Assembly (NCBI GenBank): GCA_963737905.1
Contig: CAVTUQ010000020.1
Coordinates: 1-54,000, forward strand
Source: an uncultured delta proteobacterium
GTDB taxonomy: Bacteria; Desulfobacterota; Binatia; UBA9968
DNA length: 54,000 nucleotides
Reading direction: 5' to 3'
The notes under the pieces are model-generated. The model searched no databases. It was given only the letters and a program-made list of their open reading frames with translations, and was not told where the DNA came from. The position numbers and the translations under genes were made by a program. The stretch's first letter is position 1. Each line of letters opens with the position of its first letter. Positions 1 through 20,421 of the stretch are shown here, one piece after another.

Positions 1-129
1 TTATTTTGACCTTGAGGTAATCACGCTGTCCCAAAACCCGTGGACGTCCATCGGTTGTCCTGCCTGCGTCACCCGAACGCAGATTTCGTTGCCGCCTCTG
101 TCGCCCTTGGGATACTCAACAGTGAATAG
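1..129 (-). pseudogene. S1/P1 nuclease internal fragment (copy A)
   Basis: Minus strand reads LFTVEYPKGDRGGNEICVRVTQAGQPMDVHGFWDSVITSRSK*. It contains the S1/P1 'DRGGN...H..WD' motif and is collinear with the fragment at 14515-15037. No start codon or N-terminal half. Confidence 0.8.
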
Positions 130-381
130 CTAGACGATATAGCGGACCGCCAGCCTTGCACTTTTTCCGCTGGGAGACTCCTTTAGGATTGAATCCCCGG
201 GACGCATGAGCTTTATCATCACATCACAACAAACCGACATACCGCGGTCAGAGCTGGAAAAATTCGGTAACTGCTTCTGGAGGCTGTTTGATTCCACGTC
301 AATGTAAGATTTCCCGCTCTGTCTGGCGAAGTTTAGAATAGCCGCGAGACGGTTTTGTATCTCCCATGCAGTAGGTGCCAT
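130..381 (-). CDS. Small hypothetical protein (paralog of 9643-9912)
   Basis: ATG with GGAGG SD. Aligns end to end with 9643-9912 (PTAW..N.L.AILN.A..SGK.Y.D.ES.SL...MS.C.D.M...MRPGD..L.ES..G..A.L..RY). Confidence 0.8.
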   Translation of the reverse strand: MAPTAWEIQNRLAAILNFARQSGKSYIDVESNSLQKQLPNFSSSDRGMSVCCDVMIKLMRPGDSILKESPSGKSARLAVRYIV

Positions 382-433
382 AGCTTCCTCCTTGTGGTTG
401 AGTACCGATTCGACAAGACTGACTTACTTGGTT

Positions 434-961
434 TCAATTGTAGCGGTGAGACCGGTGAACGTGGTTACGCGGTTTGGTCAATGGCGCATGGCCTTCTGCA
501 AATTCTTGTCGCTGAGTTTTACCCGCTCCCGCCGAAGGCGCACTTGAACTGATAAAAACGGCAATGTTTTTTTCCGGCCCTGGTTCTGTTGACGATCGAG
601 CACTGACAGGCTGCTCGGGAGTCACTTTGCCCAAATGACTTTTCGCCGCTTCGATCATGCCGTCACGTTTAGGAAGGATTGCGCGACTCAAGCGCCGGAG
701 ACGATTATCAACCCACAATTCGCTGCGCCTCAGCGCCCAGGTCACCGCTTCTTCTTCGGTGGCGCAGCGCTTGGAGAATTGGACAAACTTAGAATCATGA
801 GAAGACCCCGCGAACCAGTTGATATCGGCTTGCGGCGCCCAGCCATTCGCGATGGTATTGTAGGTCGGGAAGGCCATAATCACATAATTGCGGTACAGGT
901 GACTCCACATGGTGGTTAACTCCTCTCTGGGATGGTTAAACGACTGCGCCTTATCTTTCAC
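434..961 (-). CDS. Hypothetical protein with CV_2116-like N-terminal domain
   Basis: Y..Y.I.....W....I.W...(F/C).T.EEA...AL...W VD pattern shared with 13230-13442 and 6244-6480. The true start may be the internal ATG (MWSHLY). Confidence 0.55.
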   Translation of the reverse strand: MKDKAQSFNHPREELTTMWSHLYRNYVIMAFPTYNTIANGWAPQADINWFAGSSHDSKFVQFSKRCATEEEAVTWALRRSELWVDNRLRRLSRAILPKRDGMIEAAKSHLGKVTPEQPVSARSSTEPGPEKNIAVFISSSAPSAGAGKTQRQEFAEGHAPLTKPRNHVHRSHRYN

Positions 962-1032
962 GTTGGAGGGGCCGCGATAAGTGGATCAGCCGACCACCTT
1001 AACACCCACCCGCGTGTAAAGCTGCTTCGAAA

Positions 1033-1254
1033 TTAAATTCCAAGTCGCGGACGGTGACTCTCTCGGTTTCGAGCTGATGCGGCTTGTTTGCGTCTAACAC
1101 TGATTTCCTCCGCATGAAGGTGAAATCTTTTTGCCTCCAAAAAACAGAGGGTGCAAACAACCATATCAAGCAGGCTAATGCCTTCATCTTCGCTCGTAAC
1201 GCGATAGACGTTACCTACAATCAACTCGCCGCAATGCTGACAAGTGTGATTCAT
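1033..1254 (-). CDS. Small Zn-finger protein (CxxC...CxxC)
   Basis: MNHTCQHCGE...VCTLCF. Start moved to ATG 1254 because the upstream in-frame ATG lies inside a sigma54-type promoter. Confidence 0.6.
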   Translation of the reverse strand: MNHTCQHCGELIVGNVYRVTSEDEGISLLDMVVCTLCFLEAKRFHLHAEEISVRRKQAASARNRESHRPRLGI

Positions 1255-1268
1255 GATTTTCTTCACTG

Positions 1269-1283
1269 GCAAGCAAGATGCCA
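1269..1283 (-). promoter_or_regulatory. Putative sigma54 (-24/-12) promoter
   Basis: Minus strand TGGCAT-CTTGC-TTGC, i.e. GG-N10-GC, just upstream of ATG 1254. Confidence 0.55.
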
Positions 1284-1488
1284 TATCGGACTAATTTATT
1301 AACGGACAGTGGATGGGTAGATGCGCCCCTTTGATGGATTACAAGGGAATCCTTGTCTAGCAAACCAAGAAATAACTTTTTCGGTCGGTTCTGTAGATGG
1401 AGGGAATTGCCTTCGTTTTATAATCTGTGTAAGAAAATTACATACAAACTCCGTCGTCAATTGCAGGCTGTTTCGCGTTGAGAGGGTA

Positions 1489-1745
1489 TTACTGTAGCGT
1501 GCGAGAAAGTCTGATTGCTTCTTCGATCTCGGCTGTGCTTCAGGACAGTACATCTCAGCAGCAGCGAGAATCATTCGTGCATGAAATTTGTCGCAGAGGA
1601 TTTCAACCGTCCTGAATTCGTTGCCTGCTTCAAAATGGTGAATGACAAGACCGTTTTTTAGAATGGCGTAAATGCTGGACTCCTCGGTAAACTGACTTAA
1701 CAGGCGGTCATAGTGTTCTGTCGAAATGTCGATCAGTATTTTCAC
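1489..1745 (-). pseudogene. Small hypothetical protein, probably frameshifted near 1535
   Basis: Reads MKILIDIS...MYCPEA. A protein-like ending AEIEEAIRLSRTLQ* follows in a shifted frame (stop 1489-1491). The unshifted 148-aa ORF continues into non-protein-like sequence. Confidence 0.5.
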
Positions 1746-1784
1746 GGCGTTAGGATCATCAATCTCCGTGAGCCGCCTGGGTGA

Positions 1785-2051
1785 TCAGTTAGCTGGAACT
1801 AAAAAATTTTTTGGTGGTTGTCTTTCTGTGTAGATCTCCTACCCGTTGCCGGACAGGTGATACTCATGCGGGAAAGTTTGGCTAGGCTTTGCTAGAAGAT
1901 TTCTATCTTTGTAAACGTGCCCGATGCTTTGCTTCTCAACAGGGCTGTCTTTCAGGATAACGGAAACCGCCATGTCATGTGTCCCGCCGCATTTATTGCA
2001 CAGGGCAAAGATACTGTACTAAGCTGCTGAGTTGTTCGTAGTCGATGCCAT
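1785..2051 (-). pseudogene. Degraded small metal-binding protein (CxxC..H...C)
   Basis: ATG 2051, TAG at codon 11 (2019-2021), then YSIFALCNKCGGTHDMAVSVILKDSPVEKQSIG. After frameshifts it reads SITCPATGRRSTQKDNHQ and FLVPAN*. Confidence 0.5.
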
Positions 2052-2121
2052 TGACTCTTGTCTGCCGAGTTTTAGCTGCATCGTCCCCCCGGTTATCGTC
2101 TGTTGCTGTCCGTCAGGTTAG

Positions 2122-2156
2122 ATTTCCACAATACTTGTGGATAAACCTGTGAGTAA
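2122..2156. promoter_or_regulatory. Cluster of three DnaA boxes (DARS-core-like)
   Basis: ATTTCCACA (2122-2130, +), 5 bp, TGTGGATAA (2136-2144, perfect box on -), 3 bp, TGTGAGTAA (2148-2156, -). The outer boxes each have 1 mismatch to TTWTNCACA. Confidence 0.7.
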
Positions 2157-2240
2157 GTGGCTTAGTAACCTCGTTATGCGGCCCATCCAGAGCATACGTC
2201 CACCAGATTGCCCAATTAATGAACAGTTAAATCTTCGATA

Positions 2241-2451: not shown

Positions 2452-2620
2452 ATGGCAGTTTAGCCGCCCGATCGTGTCCCAAATGCCGAAATTATTTCGG
2501 TGTTGTCATTGGGGAGTCGCAAAGCGAAACCAACGTGCGACCCATACGCGGTCGTTGCGCTATGTGTGGACGAAGTCATCTGGACGCTTCTTCCTGGCCA
2601 TGGCTCAATCGACCATCGAT
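2452..2620 (+). pseudogene. Zn-ribbon (CxxC...CxxC) family stub, copy 1
   Basis: RSCPKCRNYFGVVIGESQSETNVRPIRGRCAMCG is homologous to 6481-6635. ATG 2452 is out of frame and there is a further frameshift after the second CxxC. Confidence 0.6.
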
Positions 2621-3579: not shown

Positions 3580-4617
3580 TTAGGCCGCAATCTGACGACG
3601 GCGATAGTCCAAAGGGGTTGAACCGGTCCAGCGTTTGAATGCGCGATTGAAGGCACTGACTTCGGAATAGCCAAGCAGAAAGGCAATTTCCGTAAGTGTG
3701 TTTTTGCGGTCCTTTAGGTAGTGGGTTGCAAAACGCCTGCGTGTATCGTCGGTCAGTTTCTTAAAATCAACACCATATTCCTTCAGCTGCCTTTGTAGCG
3801 TGCGCGAGCTCATGGCCATTTTCTTTGCCACCCGTGTGAGAGTTGGGTCTCCATCTCTCATCGACTCCGCGATAGACTTTCGAACCAAGGCAAGGAGGCT
3901 GTCCTCTCGCGGCATTTCGTTTAATACACTTTCGAGGTAACGCTTCAAGATCCGATAAAGCCGTGGATCAGCGGCCGGTATTTCTCGCTCTACAAATTCG
4001 CGTCCGACAATAAACGCATTGGTTTCACAACCGAACGAAACGGGAGCGCCAAAAACCCGGTGATGTTCTGCAATCTGACCTGGAGCCTGATGTGCAAACT
4101 GCACTTCTTGCGGCGTCCACTGGCTGCCTAACATAATGCGCAGAGTGTTCAGCGCGACTGTCATACTGCATTCATTGTGTTGTCGCGGGGCTTTGATACC
4201 CAAGTCGGTTAACAGAAATCTTATATAACCCAAATTCCCTTCGATAGTAAAAAACCACTTAGCTGCTTGATTGAAAACATGATAGTAACGCTCTACGTTG
4301 ACTATCCAGGCTGCAATCGTGGGGGAGTTCAAGAAGACATAGATCAACGGGCCGAGGTTCTTAGGGTTGGAACGTTCGCCAAAATGCAGTCCGAAACAGT
4401 CATCAGCCGTTGCCCGGGCGGCTTCTTCCAAAAGCCGGGCGAAACTGGCACTCGCGATGAATCCTTCAGGATTGGAAAAGGCCGAGCGGTCTAATCCGAT
4501 CGTACGCAAAACGTGATCCGGATTGCCACGAGCCGCCGTGATGGCATCAAACAAGCCGGTCGTAGCGGCGATAGAGATCATCGGTCTTCCGCGCACAGAC
4601 TCAGGCCTCTTCTTCAT
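3580..4617 (-). CDS. AraC family transcriptional regulator (N-terminal ligand-binding domain plus HTH)
   Basis: C-terminal VAKKMAMSSRTLQRQL...LTEIAFLLGYSEVSAFNRAFKRWTGSTP; N-terminal FGLHFGE-type domain. Confidence 0.92.
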   Translation of the reverse strand: MKKRPESVRGRPMISIAATTGLFDAITAARGNPDHVLRTIGLDRSAFSNPEGFIASASFARLLEEAARATADDCFGLHFGERSNPKNLGPLIYVFLNSPTIAAWIVNVERYYHVFNQAAKWFFTIEGNLGYIRFLLTDLGIKAPRQHNECSMTVALNTLRIMLGSQWTPQEVQFAHQAPGQIAEHHRVFGAPVSFGCETNAFIVGREFVEREIPAADPRLYRILKRYLESVLNEMPREDSLLALVRKSIAESMRDGDPTLTRVAKKMAMSSRTLQRQLKEYGVDFKKLTDDTRRRFATHYLKDRKNTLTEIAFLLGYSEVSAFNRAFKRWTGSTPLDYRRRQIAA

Positions 4618-4642
4618 CCTTTGCTCCAAGTCGCTGTCGGTG

Positions 4643-4987
4643 TCAATCGGAAACCGGATGATTAAGCCCGTGCGTAAACATTGACCGAGAAACCCGCGTC
4701 AAGCACCTGGTGGGAAGCCGTCGTTGCATCATTCCCGCTGATGGTTTCTACGAGTGGCGCAAGGAAGGCAAGCGCAAGGTCCCGATGTGGGTTCATCTCA
4801 AGACTAAGGAGCCGTTCGAACACCTTTCGTGAAAGCCAAGTCAGTGTTAAAAACTAATCCCGAAGAACTGATGGACGCTCACGACGTTTCACCAATCGTC
4901 AACTCGGCGAAGTACGACGGCCCCGAGTGCATCAAACCGGTTTCCGATGACGAGATACCTAGCGACAGGCAGTTGCCCCTGTTGTAA
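4643..4987 (+). pseudogene. SOS response-associated peptidase (SRAP/YedK) remnant
   Basis: IGNRMI-ARA*TLTEKPA-KHLVGSRRCIIPADGFYEWRKEGKRKVPMWVHLKTKEPF joined directly to the C-terminal LKTNPEELMDAHDVSPIVNSAKYDGPECIKPV...QLPLL*. Has frameshifts, a nonsense codon and an internal deletion. Confidence 0.85.
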
Positions 4988-4998
4988 GCAAAATTAAA

Positions 4999-5376
4999 TT
5001 ACTTGAGCACTTTGTCCGCTCTTGCCAGCACGTTTGGCGGAATCGTTACGCCGATTTGCTTGGCAGCCTTAAGGTTAATGATCAACTCAAACTTCGTTGG
5101 CTGCTGCACAGGGAGATCACCCGGCTTTGTACCCTTAAGAAGCTTATCCACATAGGTGGCAGCGCCCCGGTAGTTTTCAGTAATGTCCGGCCCATAGGAC
5201 ATGAGCCCGCCCGCCTCCACAAATTCCCTACCTGGATAAATCGCTGGCAGCCGAGTCTTTGCCGCAAGGTCCGCGATCTGCCCTCGATAAGTAAAATTTC
5301 TACCTGTCAGCGCGATAAGACCATTTGCACGCCCTTTGGTCATCGCGGAGAAAGCGTTCTCCAAATCGTTTGGTTC
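4999..5376 (-). pseudogene. ABC transporter substrate-binding protein (PF04392-like), C-terminal fragment
   Basis: GGLMSYG...YVDKLLKGTKPGDLPVQQPTKFELIINLKAAKQIGVTIPPNVLARADKV is homologous to the C-terminal third of 15122-16105. N-terminal part is absent. Confidence 0.85.
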
Positions 5377-6243: not shown

Positions 6244-6480
6244 ATGCAGCCGTACAAGGGATACTTCATAACGAGCAGTGCGATGCCGGTTCATCCGTTT
6301 AGCCCGGACTGGTATGTTGGCGGAAGTGTTTTGGTGCCCGGTCGCGGTAGTTCAATCGTGGAGATCACGCGCTTTCAGCTTCAACAGTTCACCGTAAGCA
6401 TCAAAGAGCTGGCGGAATGGTTCGGGCTTGAGGTTTCGCGGCTGGTGGTGGACGAATGCCTGGCTCCGCGACGGAATTGA
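6244..6480 (+). CDS. Small hypothetical protein (CV_2116-like pattern)
   Basis: MQPYKGYFI...W...AEWFGLEVSRLVVD; abuts the Zn-ribbon gene at 6481. Confidence 0.65.
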   Translation: MQPYKGYFITSSAMPVHPFSPDWYVGGSVLVPGRGSSIVEITRFQLQQFTVSIKELAEWFGLEVSRLVVDECLAPRRN

Positions 6481-6635
6481 ATGGCAAAGTATCTCCAACG
6501 CTCCTGCCCCAAGTGTAACGGCTATTTGGGAATCGTAGGTCCCCGAACGTAAGGTTAAGATACCTGTGGAGGCGATCAACGGACGGTGCGTGAAATGTGG
6601 TTATCGGCTTGGGTGGGTGTTGGTTTTAGGGGAAC
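6481..6635 (+). pseudogene. Zn-ribbon family gene, frameshifted (copy 2)
   Basis: MAKYLQRSCPKCNGYLGIV, frameshift near 6538, then VPERKVKIPVEAINGRCVKCGYRLGWVLVLG. Confidence 0.7.
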
Positions 6636-6784: not shown

Positions 6785-7030
6785 CGGCTCGGCTGAGTGC
6801 TCGGTTGCATGCTCTACCGGACTCAACTTCGCGTTCGGCGCGCCAACACGCCATGGAAGCGGATCAGATGTAAGCGCGAGCGGGGCACCAGCGCGGCGAG
6901 TCGCTGCACGAATTCCAGCGGCAACATGCCGATATGGGTGGTGCCATCTTTGTATGAACTCTTTAGTTGCAACACGACTTGGCCTGCTCGATTACATTTG
7001 AGCCGTTCGTTGGCGATCGCGGGGCGGGCA
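6785..7030 (-). mobile_element. IS91/ISCR-family rolling-circle transposase fragment
   Basis: RPAIANERLKCNRAGQVVLQLKSSYKDGTTHIGMLPLEFVQRLAALVPRSRLHLIRFHGVLA, then a frameshifted PNAKL; typical ISCR/IS91 C-terminal region. Confidence 0.85.
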
Positions 7031-7212
7031 AGGATGATTGCACCTGTGGGCCACCCCGTCGTCCCCACGTGCGCATTTGTGCGCCTCTGCATCAGCCCAG
7101 CCGCGAGAGGTCTGTAGGATGCGGACCTGTCAATCTCTACGTCGGCCTTTCACCCGGCTGCTCGTCCAAACTCGAAGATGAATCAATGTGGCCCAGGTGG
7201 CGCAATCCCAGG

Positions 7213-8022: not shown

Positions 8023-8088
8023 ATGGCGAAATATCTCCACGGCTCCTGTCGCAAGTGTGGCGACCATTTGGGGATCGTGGTCCGAGGC
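8023..8088 (+). pseudogene. Zn-ribbon family stub, N-terminal half (copy 3)
   Basis: MAKYLHGSCRKCGDHLGIVVRG; nucleotide similarity to 6481-6540; second CxxC missing. Confidence 0.7.
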
Positions 8089-8208
8089 TTAGGAGATAAT
8101 CCCACGATCGATCGAGTACGGCTCAGTTACGAACCCCGCCTTTCATGCTTGTCACGGAGCGTCGGGTTTTGTAAAAGGAGCTGACTTCTCCCAATAAATT
8201 AATTTCCA

Positions 8209-9457
8209 ATGTCAAAGATTTTCATTAGTTACCGTAGGGAGGATTCAGCTGGCTATGCACTCGCCGTCCACAGTCAACTTGTCCGACATTTTTCTAAGGA
8301 TCAAATATTCATGGACGTAGCTACCGTGGAGCCTGGAGTAGACTTCGTCCGTGCGATTGAAGAGGCAGTAGGCAAATGTGACGTTTTGGTGGCACTAATC
8401 GGTAAGCGGTGGGCGGGAAGAGAACCCGATGGTACATCACGACTCGACAATACAAAGGACTATGTTCGGCTGGAAGTTTCTGCGGCCCTGGCACGGGATA
8501 TACGGGTAATCCCCGTGCTGGTCGATGGCATGACTATGCCTAACGAAAACAGCCTCCCTTCTCCTGTCCAATCCATTACTCGGCGCAACGCAATTGAAAT
8601 TAGTAACACTCGTTTCAACTACGATGCAGACCAATTGATTACTGCGGTTCGTAAGGTTCTTGATGCGACCGAGGCCAAACGAAAAGCTGACGAAGAGAAC
8701 GAAAGAAATCGTATACAGCGCAGTCTCAAGCCTGGCCCAGTTTTTCACGACAAACTTAAAGATGGCTCACAAGGGCCGGAGATGGTGGTAATTCCGGCGG
8801 GAACGTTTCTTATGGGCGATATCAAACGGCGATGGATACGACTTCGAGCGACCCGCGCACATCGTGCGAATCACCAAGCCGTTTGCGATAGGTCGGTACG
8901 AAGTTACCTTTGAAGAATATGATGAATTCGCGGCCGCCACGGCTACCGAATTGCCAGATGATCTTGGTTGGGGTCGAGGTCGGCGCCCGGTGATTAACGT
9001 TTCCTGGGAGGATGCTGTGAGATTCGCACACTGGTTATCGTCAGAAACTGGAAAGTCTTATCGTTTACCCAGTGAGGCCGAGTGGGAATACGCGGCAAGA
9101 AGTGGCGACAAAACACAGACCTGGGCGGGAACTTCAGATGAACGAAAGCTGAGCGTTTATGCCTGGTACCGAACGAATAGCGGCGGCAAGACTCAGGCGG
9201 TGGGAGGTAAGAAGCCCAATCGTTTTGGACTATACGACATGAGCGGTAATGTTTGGGAGTGGGTCGAGGATTGTTGGCATCACGATTACAACGGTGCACC
9301 CACAGATGGGTCTGCTTGGTTAATACGTGGGGGCGTGATACGAGGGGGTTCCTGGGACAACTACCCAAAAAGCCTACGTTCGTCGGACCGGGGCAAGTTC
9401 AGCATCCATTACGGGCGTAAATTCCTCGGCTTTCGTCTCGCCCAGGATCTTGATTAA
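8209..9457 (+). pseudogene. TIR domain + FGE-sulfatase (C-type lectin fold) protein with one frameshift
   Basis: TIR: IFISYRREDS...DYVRLEV. FGE: PEMVVIPAGTFLMG, RYEVT, RPVINVSWEDA, RLPSEAEWEYAAR, GLYDMSGNVWEW, RGGSW...GFR. Removing one A at 8824-8826 joins both ORFs (DINGDGYDFERPAHIVRITKPF) into about 415 aa. Confidence 0.88.
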
Positions 9458-9495: not shown

Positions 9496-9598
9496 GTTGA
9501 GTTCACCGAGTGGACGCCGGATGGTCAACCTGAGACATTCGAGGTTTGTAGGGTTGAGGGAAGATAAAGCGGCCAGGAAGGTTGTGCGAGAGGGTTGA
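9496..9598 (+). pseudogene. ATP-dependent DNA ligase (LigD-type) C-terminal OB-domain stub
   Basis: VEFTEWTPDG, frameshift, then (H)LRHSRFVGLREDKAARKVVREG*; hallmark LigD ending 'EWT.DG.LRH..F.GLR.DK'. Confidence 0.8.
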
Positions 9599-9642
9599 AC
9601 CCTCTAAAGAAAACACATTACGTTTATATGCTCAGCTGTCTT

Positions 9643-9912
9643 TTAGTTGTCGTGTTTGGGTTTAAGGCTATAACGAATCAAAAGCGTCGCGCCGTCGCCG
9701 TTCCAAGATTCGCTGAGAACTCGGTCGCCAGGACGCATCATCCTTGTCATCGTATCATGGCAAATCGACATCCTGGGTTTCGAGTTTGGATCGCCTCCTA
9801 TCTGAGAGTAGAGACTATCCGATTCCAAATCCAGGTAAGGTTTTCCACTGTGCTTCGCCTCGTTTAGAATAGCCAATAGTTTGTTGCGAAAGTCCCATGC
9901 CGTGGGTGTCAT
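9643..9912 (-). CDS. Small hypothetical protein (paralog of 130-381)
   Basis: GGAGG SD; full-length similarity to 130-381. Confidence 0.8.
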   Translation of the reverse strand: MTPTAWDFRNKLLAILNEAKHSGKPYLDLESDSLYSQIGGDPNSKPRMSICHDTMTRMMRPGDRVLSESWNGDGATLLIRYSLKPKHDN

Positions 9913-10180: not shown

Positions 10181-10285
10181 GGTTGACAGGTGACAGGTAG
10201 TGACGCTGCTTTTGGGAACTTTCTATAAATCATTTTCATATAGGGATTTTCTAAAATCCGCGTCACCTAGTGTCACCCGTCACCC
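10181..10285. repeat. Inverted iteron arrays flanking an AT-rich spacer (origin-like)
   Basis: Left arm GGTTGACAGGTGACAGGTAGTGACGC (10181-10206) matches the reverse complement of 10260-10285 at 20/26. Three (G/T)TGAC units per arm; 53-bp AT-rich spacer. Confidence 0.65.
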
Positions 10286-10447: not shown

Positions 10448-10528
10448 TTGCCTGAAATCCTTCTGCTAATTGGGTCGTGTCTCATCGTCCTCGGCATCGT
10501 GCTTCTACGGCGCAAGAACCGGGGTTAG
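10448..10528 (+). CDS. 26-aa single-TM micropeptide
   Basis: SD GGGGGAG 7 nt before TTG; MPEILLLIGSCLIVLGIVLLRRKNRG*; ends 4 nt before the next gene. Confidence 0.45.
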   Translation: MPEILLLIGSCLIVLGIVLLRRKNRG

Positions 10529-10532
10529 ATCA

Positions 10533-10970
10533 ATGCTGAGAAAATGCTACGCCGCCGAAAGGGGCATGGTGTCCGACGGATGGATTTCGCTGGACCCCGC
10601 CGACATTGGACTCGTCGAATCGGTCTACAAAAAGACCCTCCGCGAGGGCGAGGAAAGACTCATGCTCGCGGTGCTAGAAAATGCCGTTGAATATTTCCAG
10701 AAGTATGTGCTTGCACGGAACCCTCGCGGGAAGCAGCTATTTCAAGAAGCCGAGGAATGGTTTCTGGATAAGGACGGCGATGGGCTTTTCTCGTTTGAAA
10801 GCATCTGTGCGACATTCGGGCTGCATCCTGACCACATACGGAAGGGCTTGATGGTCTGGAAGGAAGCACGGCTCAAGACCCCTTCTGTTCAAAGCCACAC
10901 TGCAAGTCGATCCAAGCTGGCAAAGAGTCGCGTCAAGCACACTTCAGTCAGATTGTCCAAGACTGCATAA
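10533..10970 (+). CDS. Conserved hypothetical protein (EERLMLAVLENAV family)
   Basis: ExRLMLAVLE.AV..FQKY...LF.EAEEW...FSFE.IC...GL.P..IR.GL motif, recalled as an expanded family in Binatia-like genomes. Confidence 0.75.
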   Translation: MLRKCYAAERGMVSDGWISLDPADIGLVESVYKKTLREGEERLMLAVLENAVEYFQKYVLARNPRGKQLFQEAEEWFLDKDGDGLFSFESICATFGLHPDHIRKGLMVWKEARLKTPSVQSHTASRSKLAKSRVKHTSVRLSKTA

Positions 10971-10999
10971 ATCTCTCTTGTGGAGACCTTCCTCAACAA

Positions 11000-11173
11000 A
11001 TGAACACGGCCGATTTAGAACGCCTCAAGGAAAAGGAAGATGCCGTAATCAAAATGATTGATAGCTGGCCGCGAATCTTTCAGCTCCTCGTCTACCGGCA
11101 GCTTTACGCTTTCGGTATCCGAATCGGCAATATCGATTCTGAGATTGAGAAAGAATTGAAAAAGGATGCCTGA
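11000..11173 (+). CDS. 57-aa hypothetical protein (below the ORF track cutoff)
   Basis: MNTADLERLKEKEDAVIKMIDSWPRIFQLLVYRQLYAFGIRIGNIDSEIEKELKKDA*; fills the gap in a co-oriented run. Confidence 0.45.
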   Translation: MNTADLERLKEKEDAVIKMIDSWPRIFQLLVYRQLYAFGIRIGNIDSEIEKELKKDA

Positions 11174-11239
11174 GAAGTCTCAGCCGGAGTGTGATTCGAT
11201 GCCTAACAGTACTCCAATCGCAAACCTACAGAAGGTCCA

Positions 11240-11614
11240 GTGAAGAAAATTCTTATCGTGGAAGATAACAGTGATTACCGTGAGATAATGAATCTATTCA
11301 TAACAAAGATTGGACATCGGGTTATAAAGGCCAGCAACAGCAAAGAAGCCATCATGTACGCGGAAGCCGAAGGGCCGGACCTCATTTTCATGGATATGGA
11401 TCTGCCGGATCTGGACGGAGTCAATACAACCGCATTACTTAAACAGAATTCCAAAACCTCTCACATTCCTGTGGTCGCGTTTACGGCGTGCATCTCTGAA
11501 CTATGGCTGGAAAAAGCTTCAAGAGTGGGTATTACAACCTACTTGATAAAACCGGTGTCACTTCAGACTTTAAAGGAGACCATCCAGGATTACACTAACC
11601 GGTCGCCCACCTGA
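11240..11614 (+). CDS. Single-domain response regulator (DivK/CheY-like)
   Basis: ILIVEDN, PDLIFMDMDLPDLDG (phospho-Asp), IPVVAFTA, YLIKP. Confidence 0.9.
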   Translation: MKKILIVEDNSDYREIMNLFITKIGHRVIKASNSKEAIMYAEAEGPDLIFMDMDLPDLDGVNTTALLKQNSKTSHIPVVAFTACISELWLEKASRVGITTYLIKPVSLQTLKETIQDYTNRSPT

Positions 11615-11628
11615 AGCGAGGTATAGCT

Positions 11629-11889
11629 TTGAATCTTGTATTTTGTTTCGCCCTTTTTCTCGGTCTCGCTGTGGCTACACAAGGCCGGGCCGAGGAATAT
11701 TACATTTACCACGATCCCGATGGAAAGTTGGTTATCTCGAATAAGGAGCCGCCGCCAGGGAGCAAAATCATAAAACGACTTCCCGGAGTGACTGATAGGG
11801 AAGTCCCCCAAGCGCAAGCCCAAGAACCTGGTAAGACGCCGCCAAACGGACAGCCAGAAGGTTCACTGAAGCCGCCCAACACGAAGTAG
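11629..11889 (+). CDS. Small secreted DUF4124-like protein
   Basis: Signal peptide, then YIYHDPDGKLVISNKEPP and a Pro-rich tail. Confidence 0.7.
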   Translation: MNLVFCFALFLGLAVATQGRAEEYYIYHDPDGKLVISNKEPPPGSKIIKRLPGVTDREVPQAQAQEPGKTPPNGQPEGSLKPPNTK

Positions 11890-12141: not shown

Positions 12142-12693
12142 TTATTTTCTGTTACGTCTAGAGAGCAAAAAGCCTAGACCAAGACCTATCAATAAAGATC
12201 GCACGGGGTAGCGACGAACCAAGCCCCAGAAGTCTTCTCCCAGATGTTCAAATTTTTTCTCTTGCAGATAATTACTTGCTGATTCCAACCCATCCGCTAC
12301 TTTGACTGCATTTGTGGCTAAATGCGGCGCCTTTTCCCGAATCGCGCTAGCCAGTGATTTCATCTTCTCACCGATGACAGGTGCCGCCTCGTTCGCCTTT
12401 TTCGCGGCAGTCGCGCCGAACTCCTGTGCCTTGGCTGACATATTGCCAATGGCACCGCCTGTCCTTTCGTTGTAGTCTTGAAGACGCCGCTCCATCTCTT
12501 GCTCGGCCTGCTCGCGAGCGTATCCGTACCTCTCCTGTAGCAAGCCGATCAGCTTGTCCTTCTGGCCGCCGATCCTGTCGACATCGTCATCAGTGAGCTT
12601 ACCCCACCAGGTTTTAAGCTCGCCGCGCATTCGCTTCCACTTTCCTGCCAAAATGTCCCCGTTTATGGAACCGGTCTCGATATTATTTTCCAT
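12142..12693 (-). CDS. CsbD-like domain fused to an ElaB/DUF883-like tail
   Basis: GKWKRMRGELKTWWGKLTDDDVDRIGGQKDKLIGLLQERYG (CsbD/YjbJ); C-terminal VRRYPVRSLLIGLGLGFLLSR (DUF883-like anchor); SD GGAGG before ATG 12693. Confidence 0.85.
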   Translation of the reverse strand: MENNIETGSINGDILAGKWKRMRGELKTWWGKLTDDDVDRIGGQKDKLIGLLQERYGYAREQAEQEMERRLQDYNERTGGAIGNMSAKAQEFGATAAKKANEAAPVIGEKMKSLASAIREKAPHLATNAVKVADGLESASNYLQEKKFEHLGEDFWGLVRRYPVRSLLIGLGLGFLLSRRNRK

Positions 12694-12791
12694 TTCTCGC
12701 TTACCTCCTATACTTTCAGAATAGTCCAAGAAATCCCCCGTGCAAGTAGGTTTGAGAAAAGGGCAAAGGGGAGCCGGAGCTTCTTGAAAGC

Positions 12792-12830
12792 CTAGCTGCC
12801 CACAACCCTCGTTAGAAGATCAGCCAAGCG
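12792..12830 (-). pseudogene. S1/P1 nuclease extreme C-terminal stub (copy B)
   Basis: RLADLLTRVVGS*; DNA matches the end of the 14515 copy (CG.TTGGCTGATCTTCT.ACG). Confidence 0.6.
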
Positions 12831-13229
12831 AGGGGTTAGAATGCGATAAGCGCCCAATCCAGCGGATAGAAATAACTCGTTAGCAGGGTCGTCAAGTAAA
12901 AGGAAACAAGGAATGTCAGGGTGGCTAGAGATAGCCGAAGCAGGTTGGCCATGAGATGATCCTCCCGGTGCTCTTTGTCGCTGCCTCATATCGTGAATCC
13001 AGGGCGAACGCCAGACTCGCTAATTTCAAGCCCACTGTCACCCGTCACACCCTATCGGGATGGCGCGAGATAAGCTCCTCTATTATCTTACCGCTCAAGC
13101 AAAAATTACTGTCGTCAGTTAATTCTTTCTCTATTGAGACTTGAGTTCTTGGTATTTCTGTAAACGTTTGACGCACATAGGATAGGATTGTGTAGTGGCT
13201 CGCAGGTTGCAGTCTTATGACTCTGCAAG

Positions 13230-13442
13230 ATGAAACACCTGATATATCATGGCTACTTAGTCACGATCGCGGCGAATAATGAAAAGGGAGTCTGGCGAGG
13301 ACATGCAATTATCAACTGGGACAAGGGGAAATTTGACTTGCATGATGAAGTTTGTTTCCCAACCGATATGGAAGCCGAGGAACACGCCGTAGAATTGGCA
13401 AAGCATTGGGTGAACAATCACCTTCAGAAAATGCAGGGGTGA
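13230..13442 (+). CDS. CV_2116-like small protein
   Basis: YHGYLVTI...GVW...I.W...FPTDMEAEEHAVELAKHWVNN. Confidence 0.65.
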   Translation: MKHLIYHGYLVTIAANNEKGVWRGHAIINWDKGKFDLHDEVCFPTDMEAEEHAVELAKHWVNNHLQKMQG

Positions 13443-13473
13443 CTAAACGCGAGTGCTTGAGGGGGGGGGGGGG

Positions 13474-13680
13474 ACCGGCTTGCACTAACAACGTATCCCA
13501 CAGGAAGCACAGGGGCCGCTACTACCACCGTGCAATCCTTGTTTCCACCCTTTGGCGTCCCAATCCGTCCATCGTTACGGTAAGCAATATTCGTCGCAAT
13601 CTCGTAGCTCTCTTTTGCCCACGACTCAAAGTCATTGTTTACAAGTTCGGTGAGCCGCCCCACTGAAACTCTTGGCGGTT
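13474..13680 (-). pseudogene. S1/P1 nuclease C-terminal fragment (copy C)
   Basis: NRQEFQ, frameshift, then RLTELVNNDFESWAKESYEIATNIAYR...APVLPVGYVVSASR; collinear with 14590-14800; ends at a G13 tract. Confidence 0.8.
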
Positions 13681-13887
13681 TTTCCCAAGTGAGTAAGCCG
13701 GTGGGCAGAAAAGGTTATCTGACGCAAGAGTAGAGTAAGCGCAATTATCCTTCGCACTCGATCATTCTCGTGCCGCACTATCTCCCTGTGTCAAAAAGTC
13801 ATAGAGGCTGCGCAAAAACGCCTCAGCAGAGTGATTCTTTCATAGCTACACAAGCGTAAAGATTGGGAGCAAGAGAGCCAAGCTACT

Positions 13888-14514: not shown

Positions 14515-15037
14515 TCAAACCATTCCAGTTAGCTGCGTCAGAAGATCAGCCAACCGGTATCCCGCCAGAATTATCCTTCGATCAGCAATGCGGCTCGCAC
14601 TAACAACGTAGCGCACAGAAAGAACGGGGGCCGATGCGACCATCGTGCAGTCCAGCTTCTCACCCTTCGGAATTCCAATCTGTCCCCCACTACGGTAAGC
14701 AAACTTCGCCGCAATCTCGAAGCTTTCCTTGCCCACGACTCAAAGCCGGTGTTCGCAAGTTCAATGAGCTGACCCCGCTGAAAACTCCTGCCGGGTTCGC
14801 AGTGCCGTCGCCTCGTTTCGCAGGCGGGTCAGATTTGAGCTTGAAGTAATCACCCCGTCCCAAAACCTGTGTAGGTTCATCGGTTGCCGCGTTTGCGTCA
14901 CCCGGACACAGATTTCGTTTCCACCCCTATCGCCGTTTGGGTAGTCAAAGGTGAAAAGCTGTGCCGTGTGTAGGGGCTGGTGTATGTCGCCTATGAGATG
15001 GAACAGCCATGCGAGTGCGATTGCCCTTCGCTCACGG
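14515..15037 (-). pseudogene. S1/P1 nuclease, C-terminal half with two frameshifts (copy D)
   Basis: AIALAWLFHLIGDIHQPLH...DRGGN...NLHRFWD...WxxES...AGYRLADLL, the Zn-binding S1/P1 motifs. Frameshifts near 14783 and 14730; N-terminus missing. Confidence 0.9.
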
Positions 15038-15121
15038 TTGCCACCTATGCCATATCCGATGAACAAGGGGCAAGGAAAAAGCTCTGGACAACCGGCAATG
15101 AACCGCAGTAAACAGGCCAGT

Positions 15122-16105
15122 ATGGGTAAGAAAACGATCATTGTTTTTCTGGTCGGGTTACTTCTCGCTTCAGTCCATCTCGCCGAGGCGCAGCAGCTGA
15201 AGAAAATAGCGCGAATCGGTCTTCTCTTTCAGTCCAGCCCCTCGTTTACCTCGCCTCAGATCGACGCATTGCGCCAAGAGCTGCGTGAGCTGGGTTATGT
15301 GGAGGGTAGAAACGTTTCCTTTGAGCGCCGATACGCAGAAGGAGAACTCAATCGGCTGGCTGCTCTTGCCGGTGAATTAGTTCGGTCTAAAGTCGATGTC
15401 ATCGTCGCCACCTCCACTCCTGGGGTCTTGGCTGCCAAGAATGCGACCAACGAGATCCCCATTGTCTTCCATACCATCAACGATCCCGTAGAGACTGGTG
15501 TTGTTGCTAGTCTTGCTCGTCCAGGCGCAAACATTACGGGGGTGACGATGGGTGGCGCGGAGTTGTATGGGAAACGGTTGGAGCTTCTCAAGGAAACGAT
15601 ACCAAGACTCTCCCGTGCGGCGTTCCTGTTGAATCCCACAACTTCAGCCGGTCAACTGAACTTAAAGGAAACACTGGCCGCAGCTAAAGCATTACTGTTA
15701 CAGATTCAATCCCTTGAAGTGCGCACGCCGGAGGATATCGCGCCGGCATTTGATGCAGCAATCCGCGCAAAAAACGGTGCGATGCTGATCACGCAGATCC
15801 CCCCGATCTCAACGCATTCAAAACAGATTATCGACCTGGCGGCAAAGCATCGGCTGCCCGTGATCTACCCCCAAAGGCAATGGTCCGACTCCGGTGGTCT
15901 AATGAGTTACGGAGCAAACGTAAATGACAGCTACCGGCAATTAGCTACCTATGTGGACAAGATCTTGAAGGGTGCAAGGCCGGCGGACTTACCCGTGGAG
16001 CGATCAAGGAAATTGGAGTTCATCGTCAATCTCAAAACCGCCAAGCAGATCAGGCTAACGATTCCACCTAACGTTCTGGCTAGGGCAGATCAGGTGATCA
16101 AGTGA
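15122..16105 (+). CDS. ABC transporter substrate-binding protein (PF04392-like), orphan
   Basis: Signal peptide (AEAQQ), LRELGYVEGRN, DPVETGVVASLARPGANITG, KRLELLKE, GGLMSYG, IPPNVLARAD. Confidence 0.92.
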   Translation: MGKKTIIVFLVGLLLASVHLAEAQQLKKIARIGLLFQSSPSFTSPQIDALRQELRELGYVEGRNVSFERRYAEGELNRLAALAGELVRSKVDVIVATSTPGVLAAKNATNEIPIVFHTINDPVETGVVASLARPGANITGVTMGGAELYGKRLELLKETIPRLSRAAFLLNPTTSAGQLNLKETLAAAKALLLQIQSLEVRTPEDIAPAFDAAIRAKNGAMLITQIPPISTHSKQIIDLAAKHRLPVIYPQRQWSDSGGLMSYGANVNDSYRQLATYVDKILKGARPADLPVERSRKLEFIVNLKTAKQIRLTIPPNVLARADQVIK

Positions 16106-16139: not shown

Positions 16140-17816
16140 TCACATTGGAATACCTTTTCGATCCGGATTTGTAAGCCATCGTTTAACGTCCGAAAGAAAT
16201 CGCCATACATCATCCGTTGACGGCCTAATATATGATTGAGTGTTGGGGTCTTCTCCGATTTTATCAAACACATTAATCAACCACTCTGGCCCGTGACCCT
16301 GTGCTCCTAGCTCCGGCAGCCATGATTCCATCTCTCCACGACGAACCACGAACAATCCGTAATTTTCAAGTCTGTCGAAAAGATTATTAGCTGCCTCTTT
16401 GTCGTTTGCCAATAAAATCGCGACTCCTCCATCTTTGTTCATGTCCTTTCCAGAGTCATCGAATTTTTGCTTAATTTGACCACGCATCTGCCCAAGAGAT
16501 TGCCGCTCAATTTCAGGGATAAAACCACTTCCTACGAAATCGCTCCATACGGAGCCGCCCTCTTTAAAAACGTCGATATCGACGATTCCCGCTGCAGGGA
16601 TACCCATCTCGCGAAGTGGGCGAATAATTTTCGGTATTGTTTGCCTATTTTGTGCGTGTATAAAGAGGCAATTCGGAATTCCCCATTCCGGCTTAAAACG
16701 TTGTAGCCTTTCGTTGATCTCTTGGTAGAAAACGCGGTCGGAATCGGCTTCCCCAACTATTACGAATTTGTAAAACAGCCCATTTAGTACCCCAGTGGAA
16801 CGCAAGATAGGATTTCTCATTAGCTTTAAAATAGATTGACTGGGCAGAATACGGGCTGTAGCTATGCCTTCTTGATACGTCAATCTAACAATGTTCAGAG
16901 GGACTCCCGATTGTATGCAGCCCATAACAAACTCTGCGCTATGAGTAGATACAAAGAGGCGTTTTTGTGAGCCGGTCGTAGCCTGTCCAATTTCTTTGCC
17001 CAAATTGAAAGATAACGATGGGTGCAAGAAGGCCTCCGGTTCATCTATAGTGATCACTTCGGGATCTCCTGCAATAATTGCGGTTATGATCCCAGTAAAA
17101 GCTTTGACACCATCACTGGCTGCCTCTATCGGCAAAGCAGCAGCGTGAAATTGAACCGCCCCCTCGTGTAACCCCCTTTCTTCCATTGCGTTTAAGGGCT
17201 CACGTGGCGACAGCTTAAATCGCAATCGCCCCAAGTTGGTGAGATCAATTACAAGATAGCTGCCGAACGCGTCGTGAATAATTCTCCGAACTTCCTTTCG
17301 TTTGACGTCATTGCTGAATAAGATCCCGAGGTTGTTAATAGGATGCTGCAAGTCACCACCGGCGTCTTCGTTCACAAGGGCGATTCGATTTTGTCCGTTA
17401 AGCGTTAATGTGTTGAATTGGAGGTAACCCTGGCAAAAATAACCTTTATTGGCATTCGTGTTTTGTAAGCTTCCGATCAAGCCATCCCGATTTATGGCGA
17501 TTCTGGTGTTGTACCAGCCAACCAGTATCTCCCCAGGTCGCAAAGGAGGATCTAAAGAACCAGAACGTGGCCCTCGTGTGATACGGCGCACTCTTTCCTC
17601 TGCATGTTGCGGCATCAAATTCTCAAATTCTATATCCTCAAGAATAACGTCAGTTGCAAATGCCGACCCGCGTACACAAAAGTGGTGGATTTCGGAAAGA
17701 ACCTTACTCTTGCCCGAATTGTTCGGGCCAACAAAAATTGTAATTGGGGTTGCCTCTATGATTTGTGGAGGTGCATCCCTAATCTTTCCAAACTTTAGCT
17801 TAACTGTTTTAATCAC
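16140..17816 (-). CDS. OLD-family ABC ATPase-TOPRIM nuclease
   Basis: Walker A GPNNSGKS, signature-like SDGVK, Walker B IDEPEAFLHP, H-loop STHS, TOPRIM IVGEADSD and DID. AT-richer than its neighbours; GTG start at 17816 preferred. Confidence 0.85.
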   Translation of the reverse strand: MIKTVKLKFGKIRDAPPQIIEATPITIFVGPNNSGKSKVLSEIHHFCVRGSAFATDVILEDIEFENLMPQHAEERVRRITRGPRSGSLDPPLRPGEILVGWYNTRIAINRDGLIGSLQNTNANKGYFCQGYLQFNTLTLNGQNRIALVNEDAGGDLQHPINNLGILFSNDVKRKEVRRIIHDAFGSYLVIDLTNLGRLRFKLSPREPLNAMEERGLHEGAVQFHAAALPIEAASDGVKAFTGIITAIIAGDPEVITIDEPEAFLHPSLSFNLGKEIGQATTGSQKRLFVSTHSAEFVMGCIQSGVPLNIVRLTYQEGIATARILPSQSILKLMRNPILRSTGVLNGLFYKFVIVGEADSDRVFYQEINERLQRFKPEWGIPNCLFIHAQNRQTIPKIIRPLREMGIPAAGIVDIDVFKEGGSVWSDFVGSGFIPEIERQSLGQMRGQIKQKFDDSGKDMNKDGGVAILLANDKEAANNLFDRLENYGLFVVRRGEMESWLPELGAQGHGPEWLINVFDKIGEDPNTQSYIRPSTDDVWRFLSDVKRWLTNPDRKGIPM

Positions 17817-18263
17817 TTTCCAATCTTTCCACCATCGAGAGCATGACAATAATTTCCGATGGCTGGTGATCTGCTCTCATATATCAAGTCGGTGGTCAGG
17901 GATACAATCGACTTGATAATTTCGTGAGCCGCCTCGTGTGTCAAATCCGATACGCGCCCGTTTACCTCCTGCCGGGCCTGGCTTCATACACGAGATCCGA
18001 GTAAGGCCCTCCCCCTAGTGTGCCCTCGTTGATCATCGTTACTGACATCGATCTCTAACCGTGTGAGTGCTGCCGTTGTGAGTTGATGCGCTTCTATATC
18101 TGAACTTCGTTTTTGAAAGTTCGAGACGAGACGCAACGCAAACTCTTCTCGCGAATGCCTTCTTGACAAGCGTGTATTTCAGAAGTGGCAGAAGTGACAG
18201 ACAACAGAGCATCGATTGAAAACGTCACCGCAACAAATCACCACGTTAGAAAATTTTTGCTCA

Positions 18264-18279
18264 CGGCATACTGATTGCT
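18264..18279 (+). promoter_or_regulatory. Putative sigma54 promoter
   Basis: CGGCAT-ACTGA-TTGCT (GG-N10-GC). Confidence 0.5.
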
Positions 18280-18350
18280 CTTTCATCGATCATAAAGACT
18301 TTTGCCGAAGGTCCCGGTCGTAAAACAAAGCGTATAAAGCGATCACGCGC

Positions 18351-18425
18351 ATGCAGGCGATCAATGGACGGTACCTGAAATGTGGTTACCGGCTTGCGTA
18401 AGTTTGGGTCTTCGGGAATCGCCTC
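18351..18425 (+). pseudogene. Zn-ribbon family stub, C-terminal half (copy 4)
   Basis: MQAINGRYLKCGYRLA*VWVFGNR; DNA closely similar to 6566-6635 (GGCGATCAA.GGACGGT.C.TGAAATGTGGTTA.CGGCTTG). Confidence 0.7.
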
Positions 18426-18565
18426 ACTCGCCGATCTGCTTTAACCCCCTTTGATCTTTCGCCTATTGACGATGTATAAGACGCTGAAGAGTTCATACGC
18501 GCCCGGGATAACTCCCGCCACAGGAACCGTCACGATCCCGGAACAATAAAAAGGCAGAGACGTCG

Positions 18566-19717
18566 ATGAGCGACATATTCATCAGCTACAAGCGCGAAGA
18601 ACAAGCCATAGCGAAGGAACTTGCGAATGCGCTGGAGGAGGAAGGCTGGAGTGTATGGTGGGATCCGAATCTACGGGCAGGTGAACACTTTGATGACGTG
18701 ATCGAGAAGGCGTTGAATGAGGCTAAGTGCGTCGTAGTGATATGGTCCAACCTTTCGGTGAACTCCGAATATGTAAAAGCCGAAGCAACGGAGGCTTTAG
18801 AGCAAAGAAAACTTCTTCCCGTGAAGATTGAGAACGTAAGCCTGCCGTTTAGGTTCAAAAGAGTTCACACACTGAGTTTGCTTGGTTGGGATGGGTCAAA
18901 AGACTTCTCGGAGTTTCGCAAACTTGTGCAAGACATTGCGGCGATTGTTGGCCCTACGGCGACCAAGCGTCAAGAAAAACAGCCTGCCGACAGACAAGAA
19001 AGTGAGGCCGTTGATCCCCTCCGGTCTGAGAGCCGTAACAGCATCGGCATGGCGTTCGTGCTGATTCCAGCAGGAGAATTTCTGATGGGGTCCATCGATA
19101 AGCTCGAGGAGGAGCGGCCCGTCCACAAGGTCCAGATCACTCGTCCCTTTTATCTAGGCAAGTATGCAGTGACACAAGCTGAGTGGGAAGCTGTAATGGG
19201 GAATAATCTCAGCCGTTTTAAGGGCGATCTCAAATGCCCCGTGGAGATGGTCTCCTGGGAGGATGTGAAAAAGTTTATTCGATGGTTGGACGCAAGAGAG
19301 GTTGAGCGCTACCGTCTGCCGACGGAGGCCGAATGGGAGTATGCGTGCCGTGCCGGGTCCGTGACCGCCTATGGTTTTGGGAATAACAGCAATCAGTTGA
19401 GCGAATACGCCTGGTACGAAGCAAACGCTGATGAGCAAACCCACCCAGTAGGCCAACTCAAGCCCAATCCTTGGGGCCTGTACGATATGCACGGCAACGT
19501 CTACGAGTGGGTGCAAGACTGGTACGGGGAATATCCAGCAGAGGCGGTGACCGACCCCCAAGGCCCATCTGGTCCGAGTTCGAACCCGGACCGGGTGAAT
19601 CGGGGCGGTTGCTGGCGTCATGACGCATGGGCCTGCCGGTCCGCGCGTCGCGGCCGTCTCACACCCGGCTCCCGCCGCGACGATCTTGGGTTCCGCGTGC
19701 TGAGGATGGTCCGGTAG
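18566..19717 (+). CDS. TIR domain + FGE-sulfatase (C-type lectin fold) protein
   Basis: TIR: DIFISYKRE...VWWD...SEYVKAEA. FGE: NSIGMAFVLIPAGEFLMGS, KYAVTQ, PVEMVSW, RLPTEAEWEYACRAG, GLYDMHGNVYEW, RGGCW...GFR. Confidence 0.93.
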   Translation: MSDIFISYKREEQAIAKELANALEEEGWSVWWDPNLRAGEHFDDVIEKALNEAKCVVVIWSNLSVNSEYVKAEATEALEQRKLLPVKIENVSLPFRFKRVHTLSLLGWDGSKDFSEFRKLVQDIAAIVGPTATKRQEKQPADRQESEAVDPLRSESRNSIGMAFVLIPAGEFLMGSIDKLEEERPVHKVQITRPFYLGKYAVTQAEWEAVMGNNLSRFKGDLKCPVEMVSWEDVKKFIRWLDAREVERYRLPTEAEWEYACRAGSVTAYGFGNNSNQLSEYAWYEANADEQTHPVGQLKPNPWGLYDMHGNVYEWVQDWYGEYPAEAVTDPQGPSGPSSNPDRVNRGGCWRHDAWACRSARRGRLTPGSRRDDLGFRVLRMVR

Positions 19718-19835
19718 CGCTTGGCGCCTCTACGCTTGTGCTCTGCCTCCGCTTTGGTGATTTCATAAATTACTTCCCGACCCCGAGCGGTCTGGTCCAG
19801 AAACGGGATTTGGTTGCGCGCAAAGGAGGAACTCA

Positions 19836-20372
19836 ATGAAGGAAGGGGGGAAACTTGGATGGTTGAGATTGACCGACAAGAGCGATTTAGTCCTGACAAC
19901 TCTTCACGTTTTACAACATCAAGACAGAGGCATCTTTGGCGAGAGCCACACGATCATTCCACGCAAGGCAATTACCAGTGTTCGGTTAGGTTGGCGAAGG
20001 AGCCAAGGGCTCGTGGTTCTGGGAACGATTTTGCTCTTTATTTACGCGATTCTCATGATCGGCCCGATCATCGCTGGCCCCGCATGGGAACAGGCCTTGA
20101 CACTGTCCTCCTTGACCATTTCTTTTATCCAATATGCCTCACTGTTAAGCGGAATCGCCGTATATGTTTTGTTCTGGTTTGCCAAACGGAATGAAATCCA
20201 GATTATGGCTCCGACGGCGACCCTAGGAGGAATACCTCGAAGCTATGAAGAGGCGGATAAGTTTTGCGCCCTCCTGGTCTCGGAATTGGAAGATCAACCC
20301 GGGGCAACGGATAAGAGTGAAAGTGAAGCAGCAAGCAGGCCGAAAGCGGCCGATCATGACTGGCGGCTATAA
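19836..20372 (+). CDS. Membrane protein with two TM segments, hypothetical
   Basis: Strong SD AAGGAGG; two hydrophobic helices. Confidence 0.75.
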   Translation: MKEGGKLGWLRLTDKSDLVLTTLHVLQHQDRGIFGESHTIIPRKAITSVRLGWRRSQGLVVLGTILLFIYAILMIGPIIAGPAWEQALTLSSLTISFIQYASLLSGIAVYVLFWFAKRNEIQIMAPTATLGGIPRSYEEADKFCALLVSELEDQPGATDKSESEAASRPKAADHDWRL

Positions 20373-20421
20373 TCCACTAATTTTAGGAAACCACCTTTGG
20401 CGAATTCTCCTCCTTTCTAAA

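Follow-up and report, generated by a model that had tools for sequence, protein, structure and literature searches.

The first 20,400 nucleotides of the window, by which we mean the whole of contig C20 (CAVTUQ010000020.1; 54,000 nucleotides) from an uncultured Binatia genome, probably belong to an additive island whose distal part they form; it would have grown at the 3' end of an elongator tRNA-Met gene as related phage-satellite-like elements integrated time after time and later decayed. The genome (G000) spans 6.7 Mb in 46 contigs and is 87% complete with 6.7% contamination. In the process we propose, a tyrosine integrase would have inserted each element at the tRNA in a fixed polarity, displacing older ones outward. 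Deletion would then have removed the integrase, primase and terminase genes while useful cargo was retained, and mutation would have broken the ligase, SRAP and S1/P1 nuclease genes. The leftovers, about 80% identical and present in several islands, might sometimes recombine homologously and trade patches or cargo as a side process. An earlier sequence-only reading of this DNA had instead proposed an integrase-free locus at which gene stubs serve to swap cargo.

The island has a GC content of 50.5%, versus 54.5% in the rest of the window. On the left it runs off the contig end, and on the right it is limited by lplA, followed by pyruvate dehydrogenase genes:
20422–21141, minus strand: lplA, the first core gene; in relatives it lies opposite the 3' end of tRNA-Met or an attR copy of that end.
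The sequence-only reading was right that neither a tRNA nor an integrase is visible here. A tRNA search of the window found none, an Rfam scan of it gave no match, and PF00589 (tyrosine integrase) had no match on C20, with 13 elsewhere in the genome; serine recombinase PF07508 had no match genome-wide. We attribute the absence of both to the contig break: the tRNA-proximal part is missing from the assembly, and the tRNA that would anchor the island lies on another contig. Among 17 relatives having sequence downstream of lplA, tRNA-Met(CAT) faces lplA in 10, mostly at a distance of 50–260 bp; the other seven have short contigs, rearrangements or long inserts. Genes past tRNA-Met in relatives map to contig C11 of this genome (up to position 120701), where the elongator tRNA-Met terminates 82 bp before the contig end. 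Contigs aligned to that end confirmed the 82-nt tail and revealed no sequence beyond it. The sequence of this tRNA-Met(CAT) is distinct from those of the other CAT tRNAs of the genome, which we take to be of the fMet and Ile2 types.

The same tRNA is an integration hotspot in the family, contrary to the notion of an integrase-free locus. Of 90 family genomes, at least 15 have an attR-like copy of the 3' half of elongator tRNA-Met, and attR precedes lplA in, for example, G076, G059, G057, G071, G072 and G075. A tyrosine integrase lies directly behind the tRNA in six genomes (G076, G075, G018, G059, G057 and G021), a count that is not a frequency, these loci having been picked for attR matches. 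In G076, the lplA-orthologous interval is a 15.5-kb att-bounded element that reads tRNA, integrase, helix-turn-helix (HTH) gene, DUF3631 and CHC2 primase genes, ligase, large terminase (TerL), small-terminase (TerS)-like gene, 47-bp attR and lplA; its ligase is frameshifted and of the same clade as the one in the window. G073 carries a similar att-bounded element at tRNA-Arg. Separately, we observed elongator tRNA-Met in two full tandem copies 1.1 kb apart in G082 (L323:6532–7703).

The spacers between cargo genes are, as the sequence-only reading had described, broken pieces of a few gene families, and the set (S1/P1, Zn-ribbon, SRAP, ligase tail, ABC binding protein and origins) keeps a single polarity. 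With a full-length 321-aa relative as the S1/P1 query and an intact relative among the Zn-ribbon queries, we found five S1/P1 pieces in positions 1–20400, all on the minus strand and with 14527–15042 counted as two open reading frames (ORFs), rather than the four first reported (12792–12831 had gone uncounted). The Zn-ribbon pieces lie at four sites, all plus (2466, 6481/6569, 8023 and 18352); that reading had counted four pieces on this strand. Also upheld was its statement that the DNA-processing genes of the window are broken, S1/P1 being present as stubs, SRAP with an internal deletion and the ligase as its final 30 codons only. Queries with the stub families gave zero matches in a core control region (20501–41000). 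The pieces are as follows:
7–129, minus strand: S1/P1 nuclease stub, residues 175–215 of 321 by alignment to the full-length relative.
437–961, minus strand: CV_2116-like small gene, scoring below the NCBIfam cut-off.
2466–2570, plus strand: Zn-ribbon stub (E = 1e-11 against an intact relative).
4643–4981, plus strand: SRAP stub with an internal deletion.
5002–5373, minus strand: 3' stub of a PF04392 ABC substrate-binding protein gene.
6244–6631, plus strand: small recurring gene, then a broken Zn-ribbon gene in two pieces (6481/6569, spanning 6481–6622); 91% identical to a copy at C22.
8023–8100, plus strand: Zn-ribbon stub.
9496–9596, plus strand: 3' tail (end of the OB domain) of a stand-alone ATP-dependent DNA ligase gene, matched over 9496–9592.
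10470–11889, plus strand: recurring small-gene block with an unnamed gene, a 57-codon ORF (11000–11173), a response regulator and DUF4124.
12792–12831, minus strand: extreme C-terminal tip of S1/P1, from another copy (the fifth piece).
13230–13442, plus strand: CV_2116-like small gene, scoring below the NCBIfam cut-off.
13475–13681, minus strand: S1/P1 stub, residues 237–297 by alignment of 13475–13657 to the full-length relative.
14527–15042, minus strand: 3' half of S1/P1 with two in-frame TGA codons (two ORFs), its 5' half deleted.
15122–16105, plus strand: intact PF04392 ABC substrate-binding protein gene, the head-to-head partner of S1/P1 in many relatives.
18352–18416, plus strand: Zn-ribbon stub.

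Islands next to tRNA-Arg, tRNA-Ser, tRNA-fMet, tRNA-Ala and tRNA-Val elsewhere in this genome contain the same markers, which bears out the proposal that related copies of a lineage-specific element are found at this and other loci. With the window counted through its proposed join to C11, the module is directed away from the tRNA in all six islands of this genome at tRNA 3' ends. Integrase fragments remain in some islands (C9 and C22), and the islands of tRNA-Ala, tRNA-Ser, tRNA-fMet and tRNA-Val still have attR copies (contigs C25, C22, C38 and C12). Soil contigs conserve the marker order and carry different cargo; in many of them S1/P1 stands head-to-head with the PF04392 gene, in one case with an integrase fragment directly after. 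Intact ligases of the same clade in other genera adjoin Zn-ribbon, SRAP, ABC, terminase and tRNA genes, and a tRNA is present in 7 of 20 examined 7–20-kb regions around ligases of this clade. SRAP, ligase and Zn-ribbon genes form a described neighborhood, and SRAP also occurs in prophages, according to the available part of one source (PMC3765255). An integrase is present in the related elements L301, L299 and L308, and TerS-like, TerL and HTH genes in L301 and at C22. No confirmed relatives of S1/P1, the ligase or the gene at 10533–10967 were found among viral contigs. In the paper listings that we searched, we found no element family matching this one, in which integrase–origin–primase or terminase elements combine a ligase/SRAP/Zn-ribbon module with a secreted S1/P1 nuclease and, adjacent to it, an ABC binding protein.

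Two of these islands, and one of the gene families, showed further features. At tRNA-Ser(CGA), C22:96824–106539 is an att-bounded 9.6-kb element with a broken integrase, an excisionase-like HTH gene and a TerL that shares about 60% identity with the TerL proteins of L301 and L299; no capsid gene was seen in it. A 22-bp tRNA-fMet attR on C38 suggests that C9:1–11755 and C38:137134–141735 are one island. PF04392 ABC substrate-binding domains gave 127 matches in the genome (contigs C27, C29, C37, C26, C7, C31 and C2), many of them arranged head to tail at intervals of about 1 kb and some sharing patches at 95–99%; this large expansion may evolve by recombination.

The second line of evidence for satellite-like parents is an origin-like repeat, which the sequence-only reading had correctly counted at one and a half copies:
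10181–10285, no strand assigned: orphan iteron origin with three GTGAC repeats, an AT-rich core and three inverted repeats; primase absent.
13030–13050, no strand assigned: second origin, right half only (joint 10237>13036 in independent contig data).
The 105-bp origin has seven copies in this genome at 84–91% identity. Its exact patterns had no match in viral contigs; a relaxed palindrome and spacing pattern matched 13, and in 10 of these a primase-helicase ends within about 200 nt (nine found by scan and one by an identical C-terminus). The strict palindrome pattern occurred in 1 of 123 genomes of the order, namely the window's own. The available part of a study of the SaPI (Staphylococcus aureus pathogenicity island) origin describes the same layout, in which oppositely oriented iterons flank an AT-rich core immediately downstream of the primase-helicase (PMC9371898). 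D5 primases are present in 7 of 89 other family genomes, and in three of these seven the primase clearly ends in such an origin. Neither a D5 primase in this genome nor primase remnants beside the orphan origins were found. G082 carries tRNA-fMet, an integrase, an origin and a D5 primase, in this order; the origin is 75% identical to 10184–10284 of the window (E = 7e-9), and the fMet island of our genome holds a decayed homolog of that integrase plus an origin in the same orientation. Because it is homologous to primase origins while no D5 primase was found in the genome, the repeat at 10181–10285 is, judged from its sequence, an orphan satellite origin. Architecture alone is insufficient to call an origin in this genome, which is rich in unrelated repeat palindromes; among these we noted dozens of dispersed GTTCAA-type palindromes with a 7–9-nt period, resembling repetitive extragenic palindromes, genome-wide (for example, C9:78836 and C28:233451). 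A miniature inverted-repeat transposable element was ruled out by the lack of target duplication, an often-shared flank and the homology to primase origins. We also dropped the idea that the sharp left boundary of the origin is a site-specific cut, as that side lies downstream of the primase; S1/P1 3' ends are about as variable as the left flank of the origin (36 flank classes for 55 ends).

Several observations weigh against growth by integration at tRNA-Met. The join of C11 and C20 that would place the window at this tRNA has no overlap, with a gap between the contigs. No attR of tRNA-Met was detected in the window, and G001, of the same genus, has no integrase homolog within 1.4 kb after tRNA-Met; for both reasons, an integrase could well have disappeared from the present island. 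In G076 the origin stands closer to the tRNA than the ligase does, whereas the window has them the other way round, and stacking of two elements therefore has to be assumed. On C12 the module is found 5' of the tRNA, and no tRNA is near its copies on C14, C7, C2 and C39. The intact ancestral element that the sequence-only reading had hoped to reconstruct was recovered only in part: related elements carry an integrase, a primase–origin unit and often a terminase, and no single one was found to unite integrase, primase–origin, SRAP, ligase and the S1/P1–ABC pair. The parent proposed here is accordingly a reconstruction from several elements. Two attR candidates in the window, at 14673 and 17818 (best match, 14/16 nt), lay within coding regions and were taken as chance.

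The account closest to the sequence-only reading holds that the stubs and small recurring genes, once seeded, are genus-wide homeologous landing pads and that homologous recombination, not new integration, now drives most of the cargo variation. We think this unlikely, even though parts of it fit the data. Marker order is constant and cargo different in many copies. Locus L167, orthologous by its lplA (core identity 85%), has the same module, but the genes that separate ABC from lplA there bear no relation to the window's cargo; the locus is therefore not invariant and differs among strains and species. Among 50 non-redundant, near-full S1/P1 copies the median identity is 80%, and four pairs (L108/L144, L095/L102, L115/L124 and L110/L169) are 97–100% identical over 0.7–3.2 kb and drop to about 80% inside the gene; a fifth switches near a contig end. 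One side of one mosaic pair is present in two assemblies. These are, however, short-read contigs, and assembler chimeras are possible because exact runs of at least 27 nt occur in 44% of 1,220 unrelated S1/P1 pairs and three of the switches fall within the most conserved stretch. In our genome, two response-regulator copies 32 kb apart, in different islands, share a 310-nt patch at 97%, whereas the median for 55 pairs is 79% (none of 100 permutations as extreme). The 57-codon ORF at 11000–11173 has third positions 87–97% identical in four other copies from two species; for aceE, third-position identity between these species is 66%. Exchange was found in intact genes too, however, and not just in stubs; the graph of left and right origin flank classes (17 copies) contains no cycle and hence no sign of recombination, and break points in the ligase and S1/P1 vary from copy to copy. 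Landing pads would also leave the tRNA anchoring and polarity unexplained. Of the cargo swaps at lplA that the sequence-only reading had suggested might break inside stubs, the variable cargo was borne out, and candidate crossovers inside shared genes come from the possibly chimeric pairs and the one 97% patch. Some exchanges thus appear to fall inside shared genes. Remnants are plausible as swap anchors, but this would be a familiar type of process that came second and did not found the island, and no new mechanism would be needed. Homologous exchange that tolerates divergence is known for defective prophages and satellites, according to the available parts of three sources (PMC3945230, PMC9122126 and PMC13586616).

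Accretion at tRNA-Met has three further competitors. In the broadest, remnants of one satellite family form a landing-pad network at six or more tRNA islands, with integrase-free cargo movement between islands, strains and species, and a primase-less origin kept for copying in trans by helpers; we regard this as rather improbable. If remnants did anchor recombination from one island to another, gene exchange would have an active platform in decayed mobile DNA. It is very doubtful that the origins belong to non-autonomous satellites, in which a primase-deleted derivative is replicated, packaged and integrated in trans by helpers. The seven origins in a genome without D5 primase would suit such satellites, as would a shared non-primase right flank, present behind 4 of 13 origin copies that lie at different loci; against them, origin divergence is about that of dead stubs (ligase tails, 82–89%), several origins have lost iterons (C12, C9 and L114), no att pair closely bounds a module, and the genome is incomplete and full of unrelated repeat palindromes. 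Finally, we give almost no credence to the mosaic being a chimeric or error-ridden metagenome assembly. An island running off a contig end, the contamination and the lack of an independent contig spanning the whole stretch could suggest one, as could a run of 13 G at 13461–13473 before an S1/P1 stub, where an independent contig diverges and a local assembly glitch is possible. Many pieces of the window nevertheless occur at 95–100% in independent runs, one contig bridges the junction of ligase tail and cargo (9512–9771) at 96%, and other assemblies show identical order. Three of the four independent runs shared only a small part of the window's words; uncovered bins are uninformative. None of 37 neighboring core genes (45 kb) is frameshifted, three having stops only at alignment ends. 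A chimeric stretch is thus unlikely, a judgment that is less firm junction by junction. Joints 11175>11907, 16050>19787 and 10237>13036 were placed at 90% likeness and may stem from paralogs.

The count of intact versus broken S1/P1 copies that the sequence-only reading had suggested revealed 5 intact genes among 84 loci of the clade, with 59 carrying a frameshift or stop, 12 truncated and 8 cut by contig ends; this count includes redundant assemblies, the relatives being the best 80 of 530 with re-assemblies of the same DNA among them, and omits five distant loci (41–53% identity). Codon-position identities among the 50 non-redundant copies are 0.87, 0.88 and 0.62, with 1.2 mostly private lesions per copy. 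We infer that S1/P1 genes were long functional, on active elements, and that their breakage is recent and came shortly after the elements had settled. The N-terminus of the clade has a hydrophobic stretch and an A-x-A motif ahead of the conserved Trp and is likely a signal peptide. Since this argues against cytoplasmic action, the DNA-end processing that had been ascribed to S1/P1 is unlikely, and nutrient scavenging together with the ABC protein appears the more likely role.

The region likely represents a new example of a known mode of island growth, resembling element-driven tRNA islands and tandem accretion. In the available part of their description, Prochlorococcus tycheposons integrate at an island tRNA, push older elements outward and carry an integrase and primase/helicase; degenerate elements and cargo collect distally, and some tycheposons resemble phage-inducible chromosomal islands (PICIs) (bioRxiv 10.1101/2020.12.28.424599). 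The window shares with them the tRNA-anchored accumulation of decayed elements and cargo at the distal end. It differs in its lineage, in a gene set of stand-alone ligase, SRAP and secreted S1/P1 with ABC protein (and TerL in relatives), and in retaining no partial tRNA. Like the accretion of cis-mobilizable elements (CIMEs) related to Streptococcus ICESt, as far as the source is available (PMC5704250), its elements are decayed, have lost integration genes and form a stack at the 3' end of the gene they target; CIMEs, however, keep attL and attR, whereas no attR was detected here, and the parents here look phage-satellite-like rather than conjugative. The iteron origin after a primase-helicase in relatives recalls PICI/SaPI and P4-like satellites in the available parts of two sources (PMC10085698 and PMC9371898), and relatives also have the integrase, HTH regulator, primase, TerS-like gene and accessory cargo of PICIs (PMC10085698). 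The window, by contrast, retains only an origin, with no integrase, primase-replicase, small terminase, regulation or capsid morphogenesis gene and no significant TerS or TerL match, and relatives at this site add TerL, which is not among the PICI core genes listed in that part of the source (PMC10085698). Satellite hotspots and defective prophages, as partly available sources present them (PMC13586616, PMC9122126 and PMC3945230), likewise combine variable cargo, broken mobility genes and intact cargo; here, unlike there, the candidate anchors are leftovers over several chromosomal islands, and exchange is deduced from sequence alone. Cargo varies at a fixed locus as in integrons, to whose outcome the sequence-only reading had likened it, but there is no integrase on the contig (no PF00589 match that could represent IntI), cargo lies in both orientations, and the spacers are gene remnants rather than repeated attC sites; a repeat search of the window gave no repeated spacer family, the attC model not having been run on it. 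The window is thus not a PICI, CIME or integron, as the defining genes and att sites are gone from its visible part. Large soil-bacterial genomes may assemble accessory islands from a steady influx of satellite-like elements, and a lack of tRNA and integrase near a contig end can be an assembly artefact.

The cargo is not uniformly intact, which qualifies the sequence-only reading: one TIR-FGE gene is frameshifted, and an IS91 transposase is present as a fragment. The cargo genes are as follows:
3580–4629, minus strand: AraC-family regulator, intact.
6820–7092, minus strand: IS91-family transposase fragment (PF04986).
8209–9457, plus strand: TIR-FGE gene, split by a frameshift.
12142–12729, minus strand: CsbD-like gene, intact.
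16140–17849, minus strand: OLD-like ATPase-Toprim gene, intact; possible anti-phage gene.
18566–19717, plus strand: TIR-FGE gene, intact.
The OLD-like gene and both TIR-FGE genes look like anti-phage or signaling cargo, with only partial matches in PADLOC. A PHROGs search with 14 small ORFs of the window gave 0 matches.

Two smaller observations concern genes that travel with the remnants. Across 10959–11270, the 57-codon ORF is 92–97% identical over five copies, which come from two species, and differences show no bias by codon position; it is inverted relative to its neighbors in L236 and has no Rfam or PADLOC match. Its likeness may reflect either recent spread or non-coding constraint, and the patch at 10998–11270 was rejected as gene conversion because it is 93–96% identical in all six pairs and hence not pair-specific. 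Elsewhere, an S1/P1 stub and an adjoining Fur gene are 97–99% identical across sources (L176:10002–11130, L178:9701–10560 and L133:1450–2670), with a catalase-peroxidase gene following in L176, and this stub and its Fur cargo were possibly transferred recently.

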